DNA of 64,000 bases from the NCBI GenBank assembly GCA_036253495.1, contig GCA_036253495.1_4125.1, one strand, 5' to 3'. Source of the stretch: a phage. Shown here in pieces: positions 12,040 through 32,825 of this stretch; positions within the stretch are counted from its first letter, which is position 1, and the number at the start of each line of letters is the position of its first letter. The translations under genes and the position numbers were made by a program. The notes under the pieces are model-generated. The model was not told where the DNA came from, did no database searches, and worked only from the letters and a program-made list of their open reading frames with translations.

Positions 12040-12069
12040 TCACCGAATGCAGTGAAGAGGAAATCTAAA

Positions 12070-12864
12070 ATGAGTACTATCGATGAATTGATTCGACGGA
12101 ATTCAAAATATTACCAACCATCAGAAATTGTGGATAATATTACTAAATCTGAGTTTGGACCTAATACTCGCAAACTCATTCATGTAATGTCTCGTGACGG
12201 CTTTAAATGTGATTGTTGTGGTGAATCCAATGTAGTATTCACTTTACATAAGCACAGTACTAAAGAACGTTATAAATTCAGACCTTATGTACTTAAAGGG
12301 AAACGTCTTGTACGCATGACGTTAGACCATAATGTACTGGACTGTCTCCAGGGTGGTAATGATAAAGAGAACATGACTGCACTGTGTGAGGATTGTAATG
12401 CCTTACGCCAGCATAAGTTCGCAGAGTACAGCGAGTTTAAGTACTGGTATCATAATGCAGACCGTTCAATTGAGCCTAATGTAAACTACTGCTTCATTGA
12501 GTACATCAAGAATGCAAAAGATACATACATTCTTAAATCCATGTCTCCGATTACAGTGTTTCCTGAGAATCTATTCAGTACTATGGAGCGTGATTTCAAG
12601 CGTGGTATCATCAATGCATTCAAGCACTTAGACAAAGGTATCAAGCACTTTGATGTTGAATGTTTAAATTCAGGTATGAATCATTTAGTACAAATTTACA
12701 TGAAATCGTTTATAGGTATTGACAGTGCACGACTACCAGTATATAATTACTTTATTGAAAGCGTAGAAGGTGAATCACTTCGTGATTATGGTGAAAGATT
12801 TAATAAGAAAGTTTTCACTGCAATAGCAAATGAGATTCATTACTATAAACCATATGTAATTTAA
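12070..12864 (+). CDS. HNH endonuclease (putative homing endonuclease)
   Basis: CDCCG ... LDHNVLDCLQGGNDKENMTALCEDCN HNH-type motif; ATG 12070 after GAGGA. Confidence 0.65.
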   Translation: MSTIDELIRRNSKYYQPSEIVDNITKSEFGPNTRKLIHVMSRDGFKCDCCGESNVVFTLHKHSTKERYKFRPYVLKGKRLVRMTLDHNVLDCLQGGNDKENMTALCEDCNALRQHKFAEYSEFKYWYHNADRSIEPNVNYCFIEYIKNAKDTYILKSMSPITVFPENLFSTMERDFKRGIINAFKHLDKGIKHFDVECLNSGMNHLVQIYMKSFIGIDSARLPVYNYFIESVEGESLRDYGERFNKKVFTAIANEIHYYKPYVI

Positions 12865-19596: not shown

Positions 19597-19788
19597 ATGT
19601 TGATTTATCAATGTGATAACATTCGTGTTATACAGCATCCCTACTTACAAATCTTTGATGTGCAGCAGTATATGGAAGGTGATGACCCAAGAACCTATGG
19701 TCGTAAGTATGATTACTTCACTGTAAAGCAGTGTCGTAACATCAAAGAAGTACGACAATTAGTTCAAGAACTTCAAAATAAAGGTTGA
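19597..19788 (+). CDS. hypothetical small protein
   Basis: ATG 19597 after GAGGA; track ORF from 19567. Confidence 0.5.
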   Translation: MLIYQCDNIRVIQHPYLQIFDVQQYMEGDDPRTYGRKYDYFTVKQCRNIKEVRQLVQELQNKG

Positions 19789-19814
19789 CTTCGGTCAGCC
19801 TTTTTTGTTATAAT
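19783..19814 (+). terminator. terminator hairpin overlapping promoter -35
   Basis: GGTTGAC-TTCG-GTCAGCC, T-run, TATAAT. Confidence 0.7.
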
Positions 19815-24063: not shown

Positions 24064-24072
24064 TAAAAAAGA

Positions 24073-24104
24073 GGTTGACTTCGGTCAGCCTTTTTTGCTA
24101 TAAT
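24073..24104 (+). terminator. terminator hairpin overlapping promoter -35
   Basis: GGTTGAC-TTCG-GTCAGCC, T-run, TATAAT. Confidence 0.7.
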
Positions 24105-26597: not shown

Positions 26598-26927
26598 ATG
26601 AAAAAACTACTAACTATTTTAGTACTATCTGCTATTACGTTGACGGCTGGATGTACCGTTAAAAAAGATTTATTCCCTGTTGGTGGAAGTAAAGCTGATG
26701 GTGTTATTAGGCTTGGATACACATTCGACCAGCGATCTGAAATTCCATTAATTGATTTGGAACAGGGATTGTATGTAGCTACTAAACGATGCCAAAAGTG
26801 GGGATATTCAGGTGCTGAAATTTTTGGTGGCTCCACAACAATGTGTTCTGACCAACGTCCACTGGGGTGTGTTGCAACAAATGTCACATATGAATATCAA
26901 TGTACTGGTGACTTAAAAGAAAAATAA
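26598..26927 (+). CDS. putative lipoprotein
   Basis: Signal peptide with LTAGC lipobox-like site. Confidence 0.55.
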   Translation: MKKLLTILVLSAITLTAGCTVKKDLFPVGGSKADGVIRLGYTFDQRSEIPLIDLEQGLYVATKRCQKWGYSGAEIFGGSTTMCSDQRPLGCVATNVTYEYQCTGDLKEK

Positions 26928-26935
26928 TCTTTTAC

Positions 26936-26968
26936 ATGGGTTGACTTCGTTCAGCCCTTTTTGCTATA
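26936..26968 (+). terminator. terminator hairpin overlapping promoter -35
   Basis: GGGTTGACTTCGTTCAGCCC, T-run, TATAAT. Confidence 0.65.
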
Positions 26969-26998
26969 ATTATTTCATCAAGACGAGAGGATGAATAC

Positions 26999-27436
26999 AT
27001 GACCCGCATTAACTTAGTACACGTTAAAGAACTTGCTGACCAACATCTGATGGCTGAATATCGTGAACTTCCACGTGTATTTGGTGCTGTACAAAAACAT
27101 GTTCAAGCACGTAAGCGTGTACGTGATTTCAAAATTAACAGTACTTATCTGTTAGGTTCAGGTCATGTAACATTCTTCTACGACAAGTTACTATACTTAC
27201 AGAAGCGTCATATTGATATTGTTAACGAATGTTTGCGTCGTGGTATGAAGATTCAAAACACTGAAGTAAACGACATTAGCGGCTTCCCTGCTGAGTTTTG
27301 TAATGACTACGTACCATCGGAGTCCGAGATTAAAACATCACGCGAGCGTTTGATTGAGAAGCTTCAGATGAAGCCTAAGTGGTATAAGTTTACTGATGTT
27401 GAGCTACCTATATATTATGTTGATATGATACAATGA
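26999..27436 (+). CDS. denV: pyrimidine dimer DNA glycosylase (T4 endonuclease V homolog)
   Basis: N-terminus [30 protein letters not shown]...KRVRDFKI and HVTFFYDKL closely match T4 EndoV as recalled from memory. Confidence 0.88.
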
Positions 27437-27660
27437 ATGATGAAGAATTCAAAAAATATGCGATTGCGAAGCTTGATTCATACAAGTCACGCGAAACGTA
27501 TAAATTTAATCCTGATAAAACAAAAGCATCTATAAGATGGATGATTAATTCACCCAAATATACATTTGACGAAAAATATTCATGGATAGTGCAATGTAGT
27601 GATTATGAGGATTTGGTATATAATATTAAACTGTGTTGGTATGAATACAACAATAAATGA
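27433..27660 (+). CDS. hypothetical small protein
   Basis: 75 aa, ATGA overlap. Confidence 0.5.
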
Positions 27661-27666
27661 TATAAG

Positions 27667-27699
27667 GGGTTGACTTCGGTCAGCCCTTTTTGCTATAAT
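27667..27699 (+). terminator. terminator hairpin overlapping promoter -35
   Basis: GGTTGAC-TTCG-GTCAGCC, T-run, TATAAT. Confidence 0.7.
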
Positions 27700-27725
27700 C
27701 ATTTCATCAACTCAAGAGGTAATAC

Positions 27726-27965
27726 ATGAAACTATCTTTTATACGTTTAGCAGAATTCTTCGGTACTGATATAATTACTTTACAACAAATTGCAGACAAT
27801 ACTTCATTAAGCACACAAGAAGTACTTGACTTAGATGTGATAGAGTGTGATAATACTTCTATCGATTATAAAGAAGGTCTTGTCGAAAAAGATAAGATTC
27901 AGGCTAAGATTAATGGTGCTGGACGGGTTCAGTACTGGAAAGGGGTTTTAAGTAATGCGTGTTGA
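27726..27965 (+). CDS. hypothetical small protein
   Basis: 79 aa ORF. Confidence 0.5.
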   Translation: MKLSFIRLAEFFGTDIITLQQIADNTSLSTQEVLDLDVIECDNTSIDYKEGLVEKDKIQAKINGAGRVQYWKGVLSNAC

Positions 27966-29289
27966 TATTAAAGTACCTTTTAAATGTGAACCACTGAAAT
28001 TTGTCCAAGATTATGAAATATCTAAAACTATCGAATTTAGTGAAACCGCTTCAAAACTTGATATTAGTAGGAAAATTTTAGGTGAAAAGTATCCAGATGT
28101 AATATGGGATGATTTCAATCCATATAATATGGAAAAAGATGAAATGTGTAAAGACGAAATTATTGGCTTTGTTCGTATGGGAGTTCAAAATCTAAAATAT
28201 TATGCATATATATGTCAAAAATGCTCGACAAATTCAAAACAAAATGGTTTAGGTATATTTTTTACATTAAAAAGATATATTAAAAATAAAATTACATGTA
28301 TGTGCTCAAAAACACCACTATATACAAATTATCAACGAACTATACAACTTCATAATAAATCTATAAGTTTAGGTTATGTGTTTATTGGATATAATAAAGA
28401 AAAACAAATAACTTCGGATGCTAAAATAAAACTAGGATGTTATAATCATGGTATGTGGGATACTATAACAATAAATTCGTATAACACCAACTCACGCGGC
28501 TGTTCAAAATGTGCTGGTGTTCATTCACCATCACAGGAAGAAGCAAATGAAAAAATAAAACAAATTTGTAATGAAAATAAATTAGTATTTCAACCTTTCC
28601 TATATAAAAATAATAAAACTAAAATTTTTGTAAGATGTTTGGTATGTAATGAATCATGGGAGTCAAACTATTTTAAACTTTATACCATGAAATATGGTTG
28701 CCAACGTTGTGTAGGAACAAAAAAGTTAACTACTGAGATTTCTACAGGAATTGTATCAGATTATTGTACAAAATATAAGTTGACTTTCATTCCATTTGTG
28801 TATGATAATAATAAGATGAAAATATCTCTACGTTGTGATATTTGTTCACATGAATGGATAACACCATTCAATGGTATTACTAATAGAATGGGGTGTCCAA
28901 GATGTAATCCAACTGAAGCAATACGTATTTCTAAAGATTTAGATCCATTAATAGATGATTTTCAGCCGGAAAAGAAATTCCTTGAACTTGGAAAGATGCG
29001 ATTTGATAGATTCAGTCAACGATTAAACATTCTGTTTGAATATGATGGGGAACAACACTTTATTTCCAATAGGGTTTGGCATTCTACTACATCTAAGTTT
29101 GAATCTTCTCGTGAACGTGACAGTATAAAAACAGAATACGCAATAAAAAATGGATATAACTTCATTCGTATTGCGTATTATGAAGACCATATTGGAGCAT
29201 TGAAATCTTTCCTTAAACTCATTGAAGAGAATCCAGGAAAGCAAATCGTACAGATCTATGGTGATGTTCAAATCTTAGACAAGAAATAA
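27955..29289 (+). CDS. zinc-ribbon-repeat protein with C-terminal nuclease-like domain
   Basis: Repeated C..C pairs (CQKCS, CSKCAG, CLVCNE..GCQRC, CDICSH..GCPRC); C-terminal FEYDGEQHF..R..D..K..G..IRI motif. Confidence 0.5.
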   Translation: MRVDIKVPFKCEPLKFVQDYEISKTIEFSETASKLDISRKILGEKYPDVIWDDFNPYNMEKDEMCKDEIIGFVRMGVQNLKYYAYICQKCSTNSKQNGLGIFFTLKRYIKNKITCMCSKTPLYTNYQRTIQLHNKSISLGYVFIGYNKEKQITSDAKIKLGCYNHGMWDTITINSYNTNSRGCSKCAGVHSPSQEEANEKIKQICNENKLVFQPFLYKNNKTKIFVRCLVCNESWESNYFKLYTMKYGCQRCVGTKKLTTEISTGIVSDYCTKYKLTFIPFVYDNNKMKISLRCDICSHEWITPFNGITNRMGCPRCNPTEAIRISKDLDPLIDDFQPEKKFLELGKMRFDRFSQRLNILFEYDGEQHFISNRVWHSTTSKFESSRERDSIKTEYAIKNGYNFIRIAYYEDHIGALKSFLKLIEENPGKQIVQIYGDVQILDKK

Positions 29290-29299
29290 CAATACAAAA

Positions 29300-29332
29300 G
29301 GGTTGACTTCGGTCAGCCCTTTTTGCTATAAT
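29300..29332 (+). terminator. terminator hairpin overlapping promoter -35
   Basis: GGTTGAC-TTCG-GTCAGCC, T-run, TATAAT. Confidence 0.7.
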
Positions 29333-29360
29333 TATTTCATCAACTGATGAGGACAACGAA

Positions 29361-30131
29361 ATGACCAGAGAAGCACGCAGCATTCAAATTCAGAAAAACT
29401 TCAACTCCATGATGGTTGCTCTTGAGTGTTTGCTCGATGATAGCAGTACTGTAAAAAGTATGGTTGTCAGCGGTGCTCCTGGTGTTGGTAAGACTTACAC
29501 CCTCTCTAAACGCCTCCAGAAAGCACATGACGCGGCAGAATGGAACGTAGCTACCATCAGTGGTAAAATGACCACTCTGGCTCTGTACGAAGTTCTGTAC
29601 AAGAATCGTCATAGCACCAACGTGTTAGTACTGGATGATATGGACAGCATCTTTGATTCAGAAGACGGTATGAACCTGCTCAAAGCAGTACTGGATAGTG
29701 GCAAGCGTACTGTTTCTTATATGACTAGCTCGAAGTATCTGAGCAGCAACGGTATCCCTAACAGCTTTGATTTTAATGGTCGCATCGTATTCATTACTAA
29801 CAAAGATTTAGCACTGAATGCTAAAGCTAAAACTAAAATGTCTGCTCACTATGCTGCTCTTATGTCTCGCTCTGTATACGTTGACTTACAGATCCAGACC
29901 AAAAGCGATATCATGATTCACATTGAGAACGTGATGAACCAGACCAACATTCTGGAATCTAAGGGTATTAACAGTAATGGTAGTAAAGCAATCCTGAACT
30001 GGATGTTGAAGCACGAAGATTCACTTCGTTCACCTTCACTGCGTATGCCACTGTTGATTTCGGCAGTATATAACAACAACCCATACGATTGGGAAGAGCA
30101 ATGTGAAAACTTGTTCCTGGAGAAAAATTAA
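29361..30131 (+). CDS. P-loop NTPase (AAA-like ATPase)
   Basis: Walker A GAPGVGKT and Walker B-like VLVLDDMD; codon composition looks GC-richer than its neighbours. Confidence 0.75.
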   Translation: MTREARSIQIQKNFNSMMVALECLLDDSSTVKSMVVSGAPGVGKTYTLSKRLQKAHDAAEWNVATISGKMTTLALYEVLYKNRHSTNVLVLDDMDSIFDSEDGMNLLKAVLDSGKRTVSYMTSSKYLSSNGIPNSFDFNGRIVFITNKDLALNAKAKTKMSAHYAALMSRSVYVDLQIQTKSDIMIHIENVMNQTNILESKGINSNGSKAILNWMLKHEDSLRSPSLRMPLLISAVYNNNPYDWEEQCENLFLEKN

Positions 30132-30350
30132 TTGATAACATATAACATCGATAAGGTCATGTTATTATATGCATGTATTAACATGATTGTCGTTTTAGTT
30201 AAAGTTTATAGATGGTTTCATACACTTGATATTGATACTGAAAAGGAGTATAATCCTCAAGAAGCACCACTGGGTTTAAAAGTTATTGTTTTAATTACTG
30301 TAGTGTCTGTATACATGGTATTACTATCAACTATGATTAAGTTCACTTAA
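30132..30350 (+). CDS. small membrane protein (tandem array 1/8)
   Basis: 72 aa hydrophobic. Confidence 0.5.
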   Translation: MITYNIDKVMLLYACINMIVVLVKVYRWFHTLDIDTEKEYNPQEAPLGLKVIVLITVVSVYMVLLSTMIKFT

Positions 30351-30360
30351 CGAGGAACAT

Positions 30361-30693
30361 ATGATTAATTTATTTTCAACTGAGGTTATGATTAAAATTA
30401 CATTAGTATACATGTGTCTATTCGTATACTACCACGCTCTCATCGGAATCTTGTGGTTCTTTAAGAAAGGTCGTCTTCTTGAGAAATTGTACCCAGACTA
30501 TATGATATTGTATACAATTGTCCAGGGTGTAGGAATAGTACTGGGAATTCTAGTGCACTTGATATATTTGTTTGAACCACACCTTCCGTGTATTACACAA
30601 TACATTGTATTCGGAACTACTATTATGTGGCTTGTAATGATGGGTGTGTATGGTCTGTATTTGTACAGGAAACGTATAGTGGGAGATTTCTAA
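30361..30693 (+). CDS. small membrane protein (tandem array 2/8)
   Basis: 110 aa; LWFFKKGRL motif. Confidence 0.55.
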   Translation: MINLFSTEVMIKITLVYMCLFVYYHALIGILWFFKKGRLLEKLYPDYMILYTIVQGVGIVLGILVHLIYLFEPHLPCITQYIVFGTTIMWLVMMGVYGLYLYRKRIVGDF

Positions 30694-31046
30694 TGCAAGA
30701 GATTATAAAATGGTTGACAACCAGTGATATTGCTAGTACACTGAACTATGTACTCATTATCTTATATCCGTTTTTGATGGTTCTAAACTTCATTGGATGG
30801 TATTTCAAACGTCCAATTTACTACAAGATTAATAATTCAGAGTACTATGAAAGTGTTGTAATTGCAACCTCAATCACGTATACTATGGGTGCAGTTCTTA
30901 CAGTCATAGGATTAGGTCAAGGTGATAATCTTAACTTTATGCTATGTACCTTTGTTATGATATGTATTCCAACACTAATTGTAATTCTATCGAATATTGT
31001 GTGGAAAAAAATGTTATTTGCACGCAACAAAATACCGGAGGCATAA
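30693..31046 (+). CDS. small membrane protein (tandem array 3/8)
   Basis: TAATG overlap at 30693; GWYFKRPIYY motif. Confidence 0.55.
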   Translation: MQEIIKWLTTSDIASTLNYVLIILYPFLMVLNFIGWYFKRPIYYKINNSEYYESVVIATSITYTMGAVLTVIGLGQGDNLNFMLCTFVMICIPTLIVILSNIVWKKMLFARNKIPEA

Positions 31047-31381
31047 TGGAGTACTTTATCAGTTTACTACCGTGGTACTTGAAAGTAAGTACAATTTACT
31101 ACATCATTTCCGCTGGGTTTTATTTCTTGATGTGGTTCTTTAAACGTCCAATCAGTGAATTCATCGATAATAATCTGTTGGATGTTAAACTTCACTGCTG
31201 GTTTTGGACATCGACTGTGATGCCATTCATCCATTACGGAATTATCAGTACTGGTAACCGTTCTAATGGTGAAATCATTTCCTTTGGTTTTTACTGGATA
31301 TCGACTATTGTTTACATTGGTGTGCTTTTGTATCCATTTGTAGTTAAACTACGAAACTCTATCCCAGATCACAGGAAATAA
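31046..31381 (+). CDS. small membrane protein (tandem array 4/8)
   Basis: TAATG overlap at 31046; MWFFKRPISE motif. Confidence 0.55.
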   Translation: MEYFISLLPWYLKVSTIYYIISAGFYFLMWFFKRPISEFIDNNLLDVKLHCWFWTSTVMPFIHYGIISTGNRSNGEIISFGFYWISTIVYIGVLLYPFVVKLRNSIPDHRK

Positions 31382-31382
31382 T

Positions 31383-31703
31383 ATGAAGATTGAATTGATT
31401 CTTTTCACAGTAAGTGCATTCTACTTTTGGGTTTGCTGGATTGGTTTTCTCTTTGCACTAAAACCATTTGACTTCTATGCAAAGCAGTGTAAAAATGCTG
31501 CTGTTGGTAATGTAGCTTTTACATTGCTTAGTACATTATGGGTAGTACTGCTTATATTCAATCCACCTGATAATGATTTGGAAATGTCATTGTGTACATT
31601 ATTTGCAGTCCTGTGTGTATTCGCAGCATTCTGTAGTTATATTGGAAAGTTATGTTCTTTGGTATCAAATTTCCATCGTAAACAAAAAGATAAGAGGGTA
31701 TAA
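31383..31703 (+). CDS. small membrane protein (tandem array 5/8)
   Basis: 106 aa hydrophobic. Confidence 0.55.
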   Translation: MKIELILFTVSAFYFWVCWIGFLFALKPFDFYAKQCKNAAVGNVAFTLLSTLWVVLLIFNPPDNDLEMSLCTLFAVLCVFAAFCSYIGKLCSLVSNFHRKQKDKRV

Positions 31704-32086
31704 TGTACACAACAATATATGTTATTCTTAATATCCTAATTGCATTTCTAACAATAGGTGCATTACTATACATTGGAAAGTTCTTTTGTGTAAAGTTCGT
31801 CGAAGATGTGTATGATGATATTGAATCCGACTACGAATCTAAGTGCTTCTTCCATGTTGGATATATCATTTGCTTAGTAACCACTATCCTCACATGGATT
31901 GTATACGTATTCGGGATTGGAATCACTTCAATTGGTGAACCAGTACTGTGCATTATTGGATTAGTGTTTTCTTCAATGTTCGGGTTATTGTTCATGATTA
32001 TTCTTATGTATAATTTAATCTGTACTGCTATTGTTCCTTTCTTTTATGAAATTCACAATAACATTAAACGTAAAAAACGAGGTTAA
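31703..32086 (+). CDS. small membrane protein (tandem array 6/8)
   Basis: 127 aa hydrophobic. Confidence 0.55.
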   Translation: MYTTIYVILNILIAFLTIGALLYIGKFFCVKFVEDVYDDIESDYESKCFFHVGYIICLVTTILTWIVYVFGIGITSIGEPVLCIIGLVFSSMFGLLFMIILMYNLICTAIVPFFYEIHNNIKRKKRG

Positions 32087-32088
32087 TT

Positions 32089-32442
32089 ATGTTTTCTCCT
32101 GCTGGGCAAGTTATATTCATGTTATGTACACTGGTATTCTTTATGTTCTCTGTACTACTTGTGATGAAATTCTTTCACATGAAACCATTCAGTACTTGGT
32201 ATGATAATATTGTGTACTATATTGGTAATGCTATAACACTCTTTTCAGTTGCATACTATTTCGGTTATTTTGCAATGCTATTTGGGTTATTACTTGAGGC
32301 TCGTGCATTGCTTGTAGCTGGTATGATGGCAGATTTAATGTGTATAACACTAGCCTGTATTGGATTTACTGTATGTATGTCGTTAACCATTTTTGACAAA
32401 TTATGTAAACTACACAAACGTTTAGGTGAGAGGATGAAATAA
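32089..32442 (+). CDS. small membrane protein (tandem array 7/8)
   Basis: 117 aa hydrophobic. Confidence 0.55.
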   Translation: MFSPAGQVIFMLCTLVFFMFSVLLVMKFFHMKPFSTWYDNIVYYIGNAITLFSVAYYFGYFAMLFGLLLEARALLVAGMMADLMCITLACIGFTVCMSLTIFDKLCKLHKRLGERMK

Positions 32443-32825
32443 TGACTTACCGTGATTACTTTTGTATTTTTGAAATTGCAGTATTCGCTTTAGGTTCAGT
32501 CTGGTTACTTCTATACTACTTCTGTATTAATCCAGTATTCAATTGGGTTCGTCGTGCTGAACAAAGTAGTGCTGGACAAATAGCAGTTGTTATGGGTATG
32601 ACATATTATATGTTCGCCGTAGCTTCTGTTGTTATTGAAGTAATATTTGGTGGCATGAATGGTGATGATGGGGCAACGTTCTATGGATTCGTTACATTCT
32701 TTAGTGTGCTGATTCCGTGTGGTGCTCTTATTATTACTGCGTTCTATTGGCTATATCGTGGTGTTAAGAAGCTGGAATCAATTCACGTAGATATGCGTTC
32801 AAAACGAATGGGGATTGACAAATAA
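32442..32825 (+). CDS. small membrane protein (tandem array 8/8)
   Basis: 127 aa hydrophobic, ATGA overlap. Confidence 0.55.
   Translation: MTYRDYFCIFEIAVFALGSVWLLLYYFCINPVFNWVRRAEQSSAGQIAVVMGMTYYMFAVASVVIEVIFGGMNGDDGATFYGFVTFFSVLIPCGALIITAFYWLYRGVKKLESIHVDMRSKRMGIDK

Follow-up and report, generated by a model that had tools for sequence, protein, structure and literature searches.

The 444-aa protein encoded at 27955..29289 (+ strand, ATG start) of the window, by which we mean the whole 64,000-nt stretch of phage DNA analysed here, is very probably the product of a free-standing (intergenic, not intron-borne) homing endonuclease gene of the CapR-like zinc-finger plus EDxHD/Vsr-like class. 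The gene is inserted precisely between a conserved 79-aa ORF (orf79) and a terminator/promoter cassette, and this explanation is built on its architecture, fold, residue conservation, insertion junctions, empty-site alleles and alternative occupants. The window is classed as an Asteriusvirus-like jumbo phage of E. coli, and the flanks of the gene share 90–99% identity with Asteriusvirus jumbo coliphages (A4, 121Q, PBECO4, slurp01 and others). The protein is identical to the NCBI entry 'hypothetical protein VWH97_05905 [Escherichia coli O157]', encoded on a 352-kb contig, and in the database the exact allele is a single cluster member on a single contig. It matched PHROG families 681, 559 and 9084, which are named endonuclease or homing endonuclease, and an NCBIfam search with it returned no match. 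The original prediction had proposed either a homing endonuclease or an anti-defence nuclease, and the insertion pattern, domain architecture and conserved residues support the first option. These results move the gene from 'hypothetical protein' to a well-supported annotation; it is an ordinary, rare-allele addition to a recently recognised endonuclease family and opens no new biological principle. The features of the locus are as follows.

19782-19814, 24072-24104, 26938-26970, 27667-27699 and 29300-29332, + strand: copies of the cassette
26999..27436, + strand: denV-type pyrimidine-dimer DNA glycosylase (Pfam Pyr_excise, E 8.8e-15)
27667..27699, + strand: upstream copy of the cassette, directly 5' of orf79 (8-bp stem, UUCG loop, T5 tail)
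27726..27965, + strand: orf79, conserved 79-aa ORF (PHROG 34150), left border of the slot
27955..29289, + strand: predicted homing endonuclease gene, complete and free-standing, 444 aa
27955..28176, + strand: N-terminal region, residues 1 to ~74 (pLDDT below 50)
28177..28908, + strand: four tandem CapR/DUF4379/DUF723-type zinc-finger modules, residues ~75-318 (ligand sets, Pfam)
28906..29286, + strand: Vsr-like/EDxHD-like PD-(D/E)xK nuclease domain, residues 318-444
29125..29273, + strand: last ~150 nt of the gene, the sole part with nucleotide-level matches in phage records (nucleotide search)
29300..29332, + strand: downstream, identical copy of the cassette, right border of the insertion
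29361..30131, + strand: conserved 256-aa P-loop/AAA-like gene (PHROG 1250), right flank of the slot, no mismatch to A4

Among close relatives the gene is present or absent at a precise intergenic site, and the junctions were mapped to the nucleotide. In Salmonella phage SD-15_S21, whose empty-site allele is carried at record positions 160785-161320, the site reads ...GTTTTAAGTAA joined directly to AAAAAGGGTTGAC (in a longer reading, ...GGAGTTTTAAGTAA joined to AAAAAGGGTTGACTTCGG...), and the window reads ...GTTTTAAGTAATG, the gene, ...AAATAACAATAC and then AAAAGGGTTGAC, so that the gene sits exactly between the two empty-site halves. Empty sites were found in 4 of 33 related records, all four from Salmonella phages, and fEgEco12 lacks the entire stretch from denV to the P-loop gene. 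Other relatives carry a different gene at this position.

A4: 565 aa, same ATG, PHROG 681/559, C-terminus T5orf172-like by motif only
JP4: 372 aa, same ATG, different N-terminus, same nuclease domain at 60% identity
Metagenomic P0003: 472 aa, same ATG, same architecture at 40% identity
121Q (the fifth occupant): 487 aa, different left junction, N-terminus 25% identical, different C-terminal domain

BLASTP detected no similarity between the 565-aa occupant of A4 and the 444-aa protein. At the left junction (27955), the 444-, 565-, 372- and 472-aa genes share the exact ATG that overlaps the end of orf79, and at the right junction (29290-29299) the genes of the window, A4, JP4 and the metagenomic record stop short of the AAAAGGGTTGAC cassette by a few bases. 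The slot thus behaves like a start-codon-precise exchange site. Comparison of the window with A4 revealed no mismatch at 27080-27710 and 29294-30140, yet unrelated endonuclease genes lie inside; because the flanks match fully and the occupants are unrelated, the swap was very recent.

The same pattern bears on whether the protein could serve as a weapon against a competitor (a phage satellite, another phage or host DNA) or as a counter-defence nuclease. There is precedent in ICP1 Odn, which derives from a T5orf172 homing endonuclease, and homing-endonuclease domains have been co-opted in phage-satellite conflicts (PMC10448857); SegB is reported to drive amplification of anti-defence loci (PMC13096335). 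The gene also lies within a variable accessory region. Against this, the neighbourhood holds no visible satellite- or defence-related gene, selfish turnover classically leaves just such a pattern, with one precise site that is empty in some alleles and holds one of several interchangeable endonuclease genes in others, and the exclusion of markers of co-infecting relatives already belongs to ordinary homing. We therefore consider a weapon improbable, and the anti-defence option of the original prediction found no support. Turnover of the slot could also proceed by cassette-mediated recombination alone, without endonuclease activity.

Nucleotide-level comparison located where the gene joins sequence held in common with other phages. 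The first 1,160 nt had no DNA-level match in any phage record searched, and 29125-29273 is 97% identical to the endonuclease genes of JP4, G17 and Sharanji, which are otherwise unalignable with it. Since 29128-29249 (~120 nt) matches JP4 without a mismatch and the neighbouring P-loop core gene is ~91% identical, a recombination boundary probably lies within the nuclease domain, just after D389. Among relatives whose DNA-binding regions differ, the C-terminal ~55 aa (IKTEYAINNGYNFIRIAYYEDH...KQIVQIYGEVQILDKK) stay nearly constant and occur in two tail variants; candidate causes are gene conversion, use as a recombination handle and a constraint from dimerisation. At the other end, the N-terminal 260-320 residues show 25–29% identity to 121Q gp221 and to metagenomic P0016 and P0019, whose C-terminal domain differs. 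With 121Q gp221 (L002 2360-3823) and P0016/P0019 the protein shares both its N-terminal leader (MRVDIKVPFKCEPLK...) and its zinc modules (27955-28900). By its motifs, the alternative C-terminal domain of A4 gp225, 121Q gp221 and P0016 is probably T5orf172; as a Pfam assignment T5orf172 was not accepted, its scores being sub-threshold (best E 0.083). Two different nuclease domains occur on the DNA-binding scaffold, which suggests nuclease-domain swapping on a single scaffold, and several different DNA-binding regions are found joined to the Vsr-like nuclease domain.

The cassette at both ends of the unit is 33 nt long (GGGTTGACTTCGGTCAGCCCTTTTTGCTATAAT). Five copies with ≤3 mismatches, all on the + strand, occur in the window, where none is expected by chance. 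The cassette combines an 8-bp hairpin with a UUCG loop and U-run (fold z-score −5.7) and an overlapping promoter with an 11/12 sigma-70 match (TTGACT-N18-TATAAT), and resembles the promoter-stem-loop (PeSL) cassettes of T4-type phages. The upstream copy is presumed to be the promoter of orf79 and the endonuclease gene, and the downstream copy is presumed to terminate this unit and to drive transcription of the next gene. The last 11 nt of orf79 overlap the endonuclease start, and the two genes are probably co-transcribed. As cassettes lie upstream of orf79 and downstream of the endonuclease gene, the latter constitutes a promoter-less cassette within a small transcription unit. The five cassettes bracket small variable gene modules, and in each of the six relatives examined the variable region is likewise flanked by this cassette. 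One further ORF (26598-26927, + strand, 109 aa) has a lipoprotein-like signal (…LSAITLTAGC) and no counterpart in A4, which is otherwise ~99% identical; as this ORF adjoins the cassette copy at 26938, it is another cassette-associated indel. In relatives the variable region directly follows denV, and denV itself comes after a gene annotated as an HNH endonuclease in JP4 and fEgEco12, which marks the surroundings of denV as a nuclease-insertion hotspot. On the far side of the P-loop gene, seven or eight small ORFs (72-127 aa) follow one another end to end at 30132-32825 (+ strand); every one is very hydrophobic, multi-pass membrane-like in appearance and has a basic C-terminus. BLAST among these ORFs found no similarity beyond one marginal pair (20% identity, E 0.002), and relatives carry a comparable run of ~110-aa ORFs.

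The N-terminal two thirds of the protein form a zinc-finger array. All 19 cysteines fall within residues 1-317 and none within 318-444, and the count of six CxxC motifs is a significant excess: 20,000 shuffles averaged 0.77, and a single one reached six. Four ligand sets were recognised: C87xxC90...C115xC117 (module 0), C162xxH165...C183xxC186 (module 1), C228xxC231...C249xxC252 (module 2) and C294xxC297...C314xxC317 (module 3). They have the CapR-type arrangement of two cysteine pairs ~20-26 residues apart (CxxC...CxC/CxxC); the spacing of module 0 (CxxC-24-CxC) matches CapR exactly, and module 1 has the form CxxH...CxxC. Pfam profile searches assigned the CapR homology domain (PF21817) to four stretches (E 1.2e-14, 54.7 bits against a gathering cutoff of 24.2) and the treble-clef zinc finger DUF4379 (PF14311) at 29.3 against a cutoff of 24.5, and the domains precomputed for the identical database protein are DUF723, DUF4379 and CapR. 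Cysteines, ligand sets and Pfam thus agree with the original prediction of repeated C..C pairs in the first two thirds of the ORF, and the estimate of about four zinc-ribbon repeats holds, with four ligand sets and above-threshold CapR in four stretches. In the full-length model, modules 2 and 3 have pLDDT values of 60-93, module 1 is moderate and residues 1-120, including module 0, are poor; each module folds as a helix followed by a small beta-sheet with cysteine knuckles. Foldseek against the PDB gave weak, high-rmsd matches of residues ~120-320 to the tandem dsRBD proteins TRBP, Loqs and DGCR8, which may reflect a common alpha-beta-beta-beta-alpha module topology or noise.

By analogy, the four modules are presumed to be a sequence-reading DNA-binding array. 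CapR is a repressor of the PLE satellite that came from the DNA-binding domain of ICP1 homing endonucleases, and its binding to DNA needs all four cysteines; zinc-dependent, sequence-specific DNA binding has been shown for PLE CapR only (PMC8096241). T5orf172 homing endonucleases carry repeated and shuffled zinc modules of the CapR, DUF723 and DUF4397 (that paper's spelling) types (PMC10448857).

The C-terminal third was predicted as a nuclease with good structural confidence. An AlphaFold2 model of residues 318-444, built with 19 homologues as input, reached a mean pLDDT of 92.6 and has the Vsr-type alpha/beta PD-(D/E)xK fold; its top structural match was Vsr, and the full-length model also matched 1vsr (probability 0.97). 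The motifs named in the original prediction were all located: FEYDGEQHF corresponds to residues 361-369, R..D..K to R386/D389/K392 and G.NFIRI to residues 400-406, and within the family conservation peaks at these positions. No variation was seen among 60 diverse representatives at D351, N358, E362, H368, D389 and K392, and conservation reaches 90% or more at D364, G365, Q367 and R405. E321, in the first helix, is the majority residue at its position among the 19 close homologues. The EDxHD residues occur in order as E321, D351, H368 and D389, the references being E25, D51, H69 and D97 in Vsr and E170, D196, H213 and D222 in I-Bth0305I. From motif order and fold we infer that D351/H368/D389 are equivalent to D51/H69/D97 of Vsr. 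The domain ends in a conserved helix and beta-hairpin tail (residues ~412-442). With a Vsr-like fold and invariant D, E and K residues, the Vsr/PD-(D/E)xK-type reading of the original prediction is well founded, and an absence of nuclease fold or of conserved catalytic residues, which would have spoken against it, was not seen.

At the level of sequence the relationship is distant. Whereas profile searches placed the zinc fingers above threshold, the PD-(D/E)xK/Vsr part remained sub-threshold: Pfam matches of the nuclease domain to DUF5889, DUF559, RAP and DUF2726, which we take to be members of the PD-(D/E)xK clan, each fell below the gathering score. A PDB sequence search with the whole protein and with a 19-sequence nuclease-domain profile found nothing meaningful. 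Alignment of that profile with Vsr by hhalign, using a Vsr sequence that agreed with 1CW0, was not significant (probability 0.07%), and paired RFD351 with RPD51 of Vsr. Similarity to Vsr or I-Bth0305I was thus not statistically detectable by PDB search or hhalign, which fits the wording 'distantly related outgroup' of PMC12350094. The nuclease-domain profile matched 33,745 50%-identity clusters with E ≤ 1e-3, and 13,063 with E ≤ 1e-10; among the 150 matches listed, nearly all have the domain at or near the C-terminus, with lengths mostly of 130-700 aa. Structural neighbours in BFVD come from phages and giant viruses and bear the labels treble-clef zinc finger, CapR-homology, restriction enzyme, homing endonuclease or group I intron protein. 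PHROG 559 and several RefSeq relatives carry the label 'HNH endonuclease', which we rejected for this protein: Pfam matches at E ≤ 1 included no HNH family, with its beta-beta-alpha-metal motif, and the predicted fold resembles that of Vsr. On the relatives the name is probably a misnomer.

Because Vsr was the top structural match and denV lies 520 bp upstream of the endonuclease gene, a DNA-repair enzyme, that is, a Vsr-like mismatch nickase acting alongside denV, was weighed. The gene is not conserved in close relatives, whose slot is empty or filled with unrelated genes. Since residues 318-444 contain no cysteine, the structural zinc site of Vsr is absent from the domain and could not form; moreover, long zinc-finger reader arrays typify site-specific homing enzymes rather than enzymes that recognise mismatches. 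On the absence from relatives and the lack of the zinc site we rejected a repair role, which is scarcely credible.

A domesticated relic of a homing endonuclease would have a nuclease that does not cut, the protein being either a DNA-binding regulator only or in decay. Homing endonuclease genes commonly degenerate once fixed, and the exact allele is rare, with one cluster member on one contig. PLE CapR, a homing-endonuclease DNA-binding domain co-opted as a repressor, offers a parallel (PMC8096241). The ORF is intact, however, with four zinc ligand sets and all family-invariant nuclease residues, and flanks identical to A4 around unrelated occupants indicate a very recent arrival that left little time for decay. 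A relic is hence a minor possibility, and an active homing endonuclease is the reading we prefer.

The original prediction had also pointed to several nucleases in the accessory region, including an HNH gene at 12070. In the ORF at 12052..12864 (+ strand) HNH was found below threshold only (PF01844, E 0.017, 15.7 bits against a cutoff of 21.4), together with a CxxC...CxxC...HN pattern, so that an HNH gene there is plausible but at best a weak candidate. A tblastn search of the window with the 444-aa protein returned no paralogue, and the idea of several related nucleases was not borne out.

For an active homing endonuclease we propose the following course, in which cleavage, target site, oligomeric state and homing are inferred. 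The gene would have no promoter of its own and would be transcribed with orf79 from the sigma-70-like promoter of the cassette at 27670-27699, with transcription ending at the identical hairpin at 29300; a Shine-Dalgarno-like run, GGAAAGGGG, stands 9 nt upstream of the endonuclease ATG. The four tandem zinc modules, each an alpha-helix and a small beta-sheet with four Cys/His ligands, would lie along the DNA and read a long target, and in the Vsr-fold domain D351, E362/D364, H368 and D389 would bind metal and hydrolyse a phosphodiester bond. As one Vsr-like domain provides a single active site, the enzyme would have to dimerise to make a double-strand break, as I-Bth0305I does, possibly via the strongly conserved C-terminal helix/hairpin tail; otherwise the enzyme would only nick. 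In a co-infecting relative with an empty or differently filled slot, cleavage would occur near the orf79/cassette junction, and repair of the break by recombination with the endonuclease-bearing genome would copy the gene into the recipient, with orf79 as left homology and the endonuclease tail, cassette and ATPase-like gene as right homology. A more speculative and rather doubtful extension is that the orf79/cassette junction is a dedicated landing pad, where genes with differing DNA-reading arrays or catalytic domains are exchanged as start-codon-precise cassettes, and that the highly conserved last ~150 nt of the nuclease gene and the terminator/promoter hairpin form the right recombination handle and possibly a palindromic cleavage target. 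If this were true, promoter-stem-loop cassettes and endonucleases would be a coupled gene-shuffling system in jumbo phages and not independent features.

As this locus shows, Asteriusvirus genomes that are nearly identical can be told apart by endonuclease genes swapped in recently, which is relevant to phage comparison or therapeutic use. It also provides a clean natural example, with a known empty site and at least five interchangeable occupants, for a large endonuclease class.

A study of 2025 reported this architecture for a large outgroup of the EDxHD/Vsr homing endonucleases, most of whose members lack annotation; there, three to five ~60-aa CapR/DUF4379/DUF723-like modules precede a ~100-aa C-terminal EDxHD/Vsr-like nuclease (PMC12350094). 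For this CapR/DUF4379-Vsr-like outgroup, the literature consulted offered no biochemical test of any member. By description, four proteins of that study are intron-encoded, whereas the present gene stands free between genes, and its product adds a ~75-aa N-terminal region and a conserved ~35-aa C-terminal tail to the group's plan. I-Bth0305I, the Vsr-fold prototype of the EDxHD family (PDB 3R3P; PMC3239194), likewise lacks the structural zinc site of Vsr (PMC3239194), but it reads DNA by NUMOD/helix-turn-helix elements in place of zinc modules and is encoded in a recA group I intron, not between genes. E. coli Vsr itself (PDB 1CW0/1VSR) is a single-domain host nickase for T:G-mismatch repair with a structural zinc site, in contrast to a protein with a cysteine-free nuclease domain, four DNA-binding modules and the behaviour of a mobile gene. 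The CapR-domain T5orf172 homing endonucleases of ICP1 and PLE CapR have the same repeated CxxC...CxC/CxxC zinc modules (PMC8096241, PMC10448857), and the ICP1 enzymes also shuffle DNA-binding and nuclease modules; their catalytic domain is T5orf172 (GIY-YIG-like), CapR has none, and that of the 444-aa protein is Vsr-like. In genomic setting, the gene resembles the free-standing endonuclease genes of T4, seven of which are arranged as promoter-less intergenic cassettes (PMC2988022). The seg, mob and Hef genes of T4-type phages are, like the present gene, intergenic, oriented as their neighbours, promoter-less and polymorphic among relatives, and in one T4-type slot segH/hef replace mobC/mobE, so that different families occupy one place (PMC2988022). 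These endonucleases belong to a different phage lineage and mostly to other catalytic families (GIY-YIG, HNH); Hef, which is counted among the Vsr-like endonucleases (PMC3239194), is likened here by description only.
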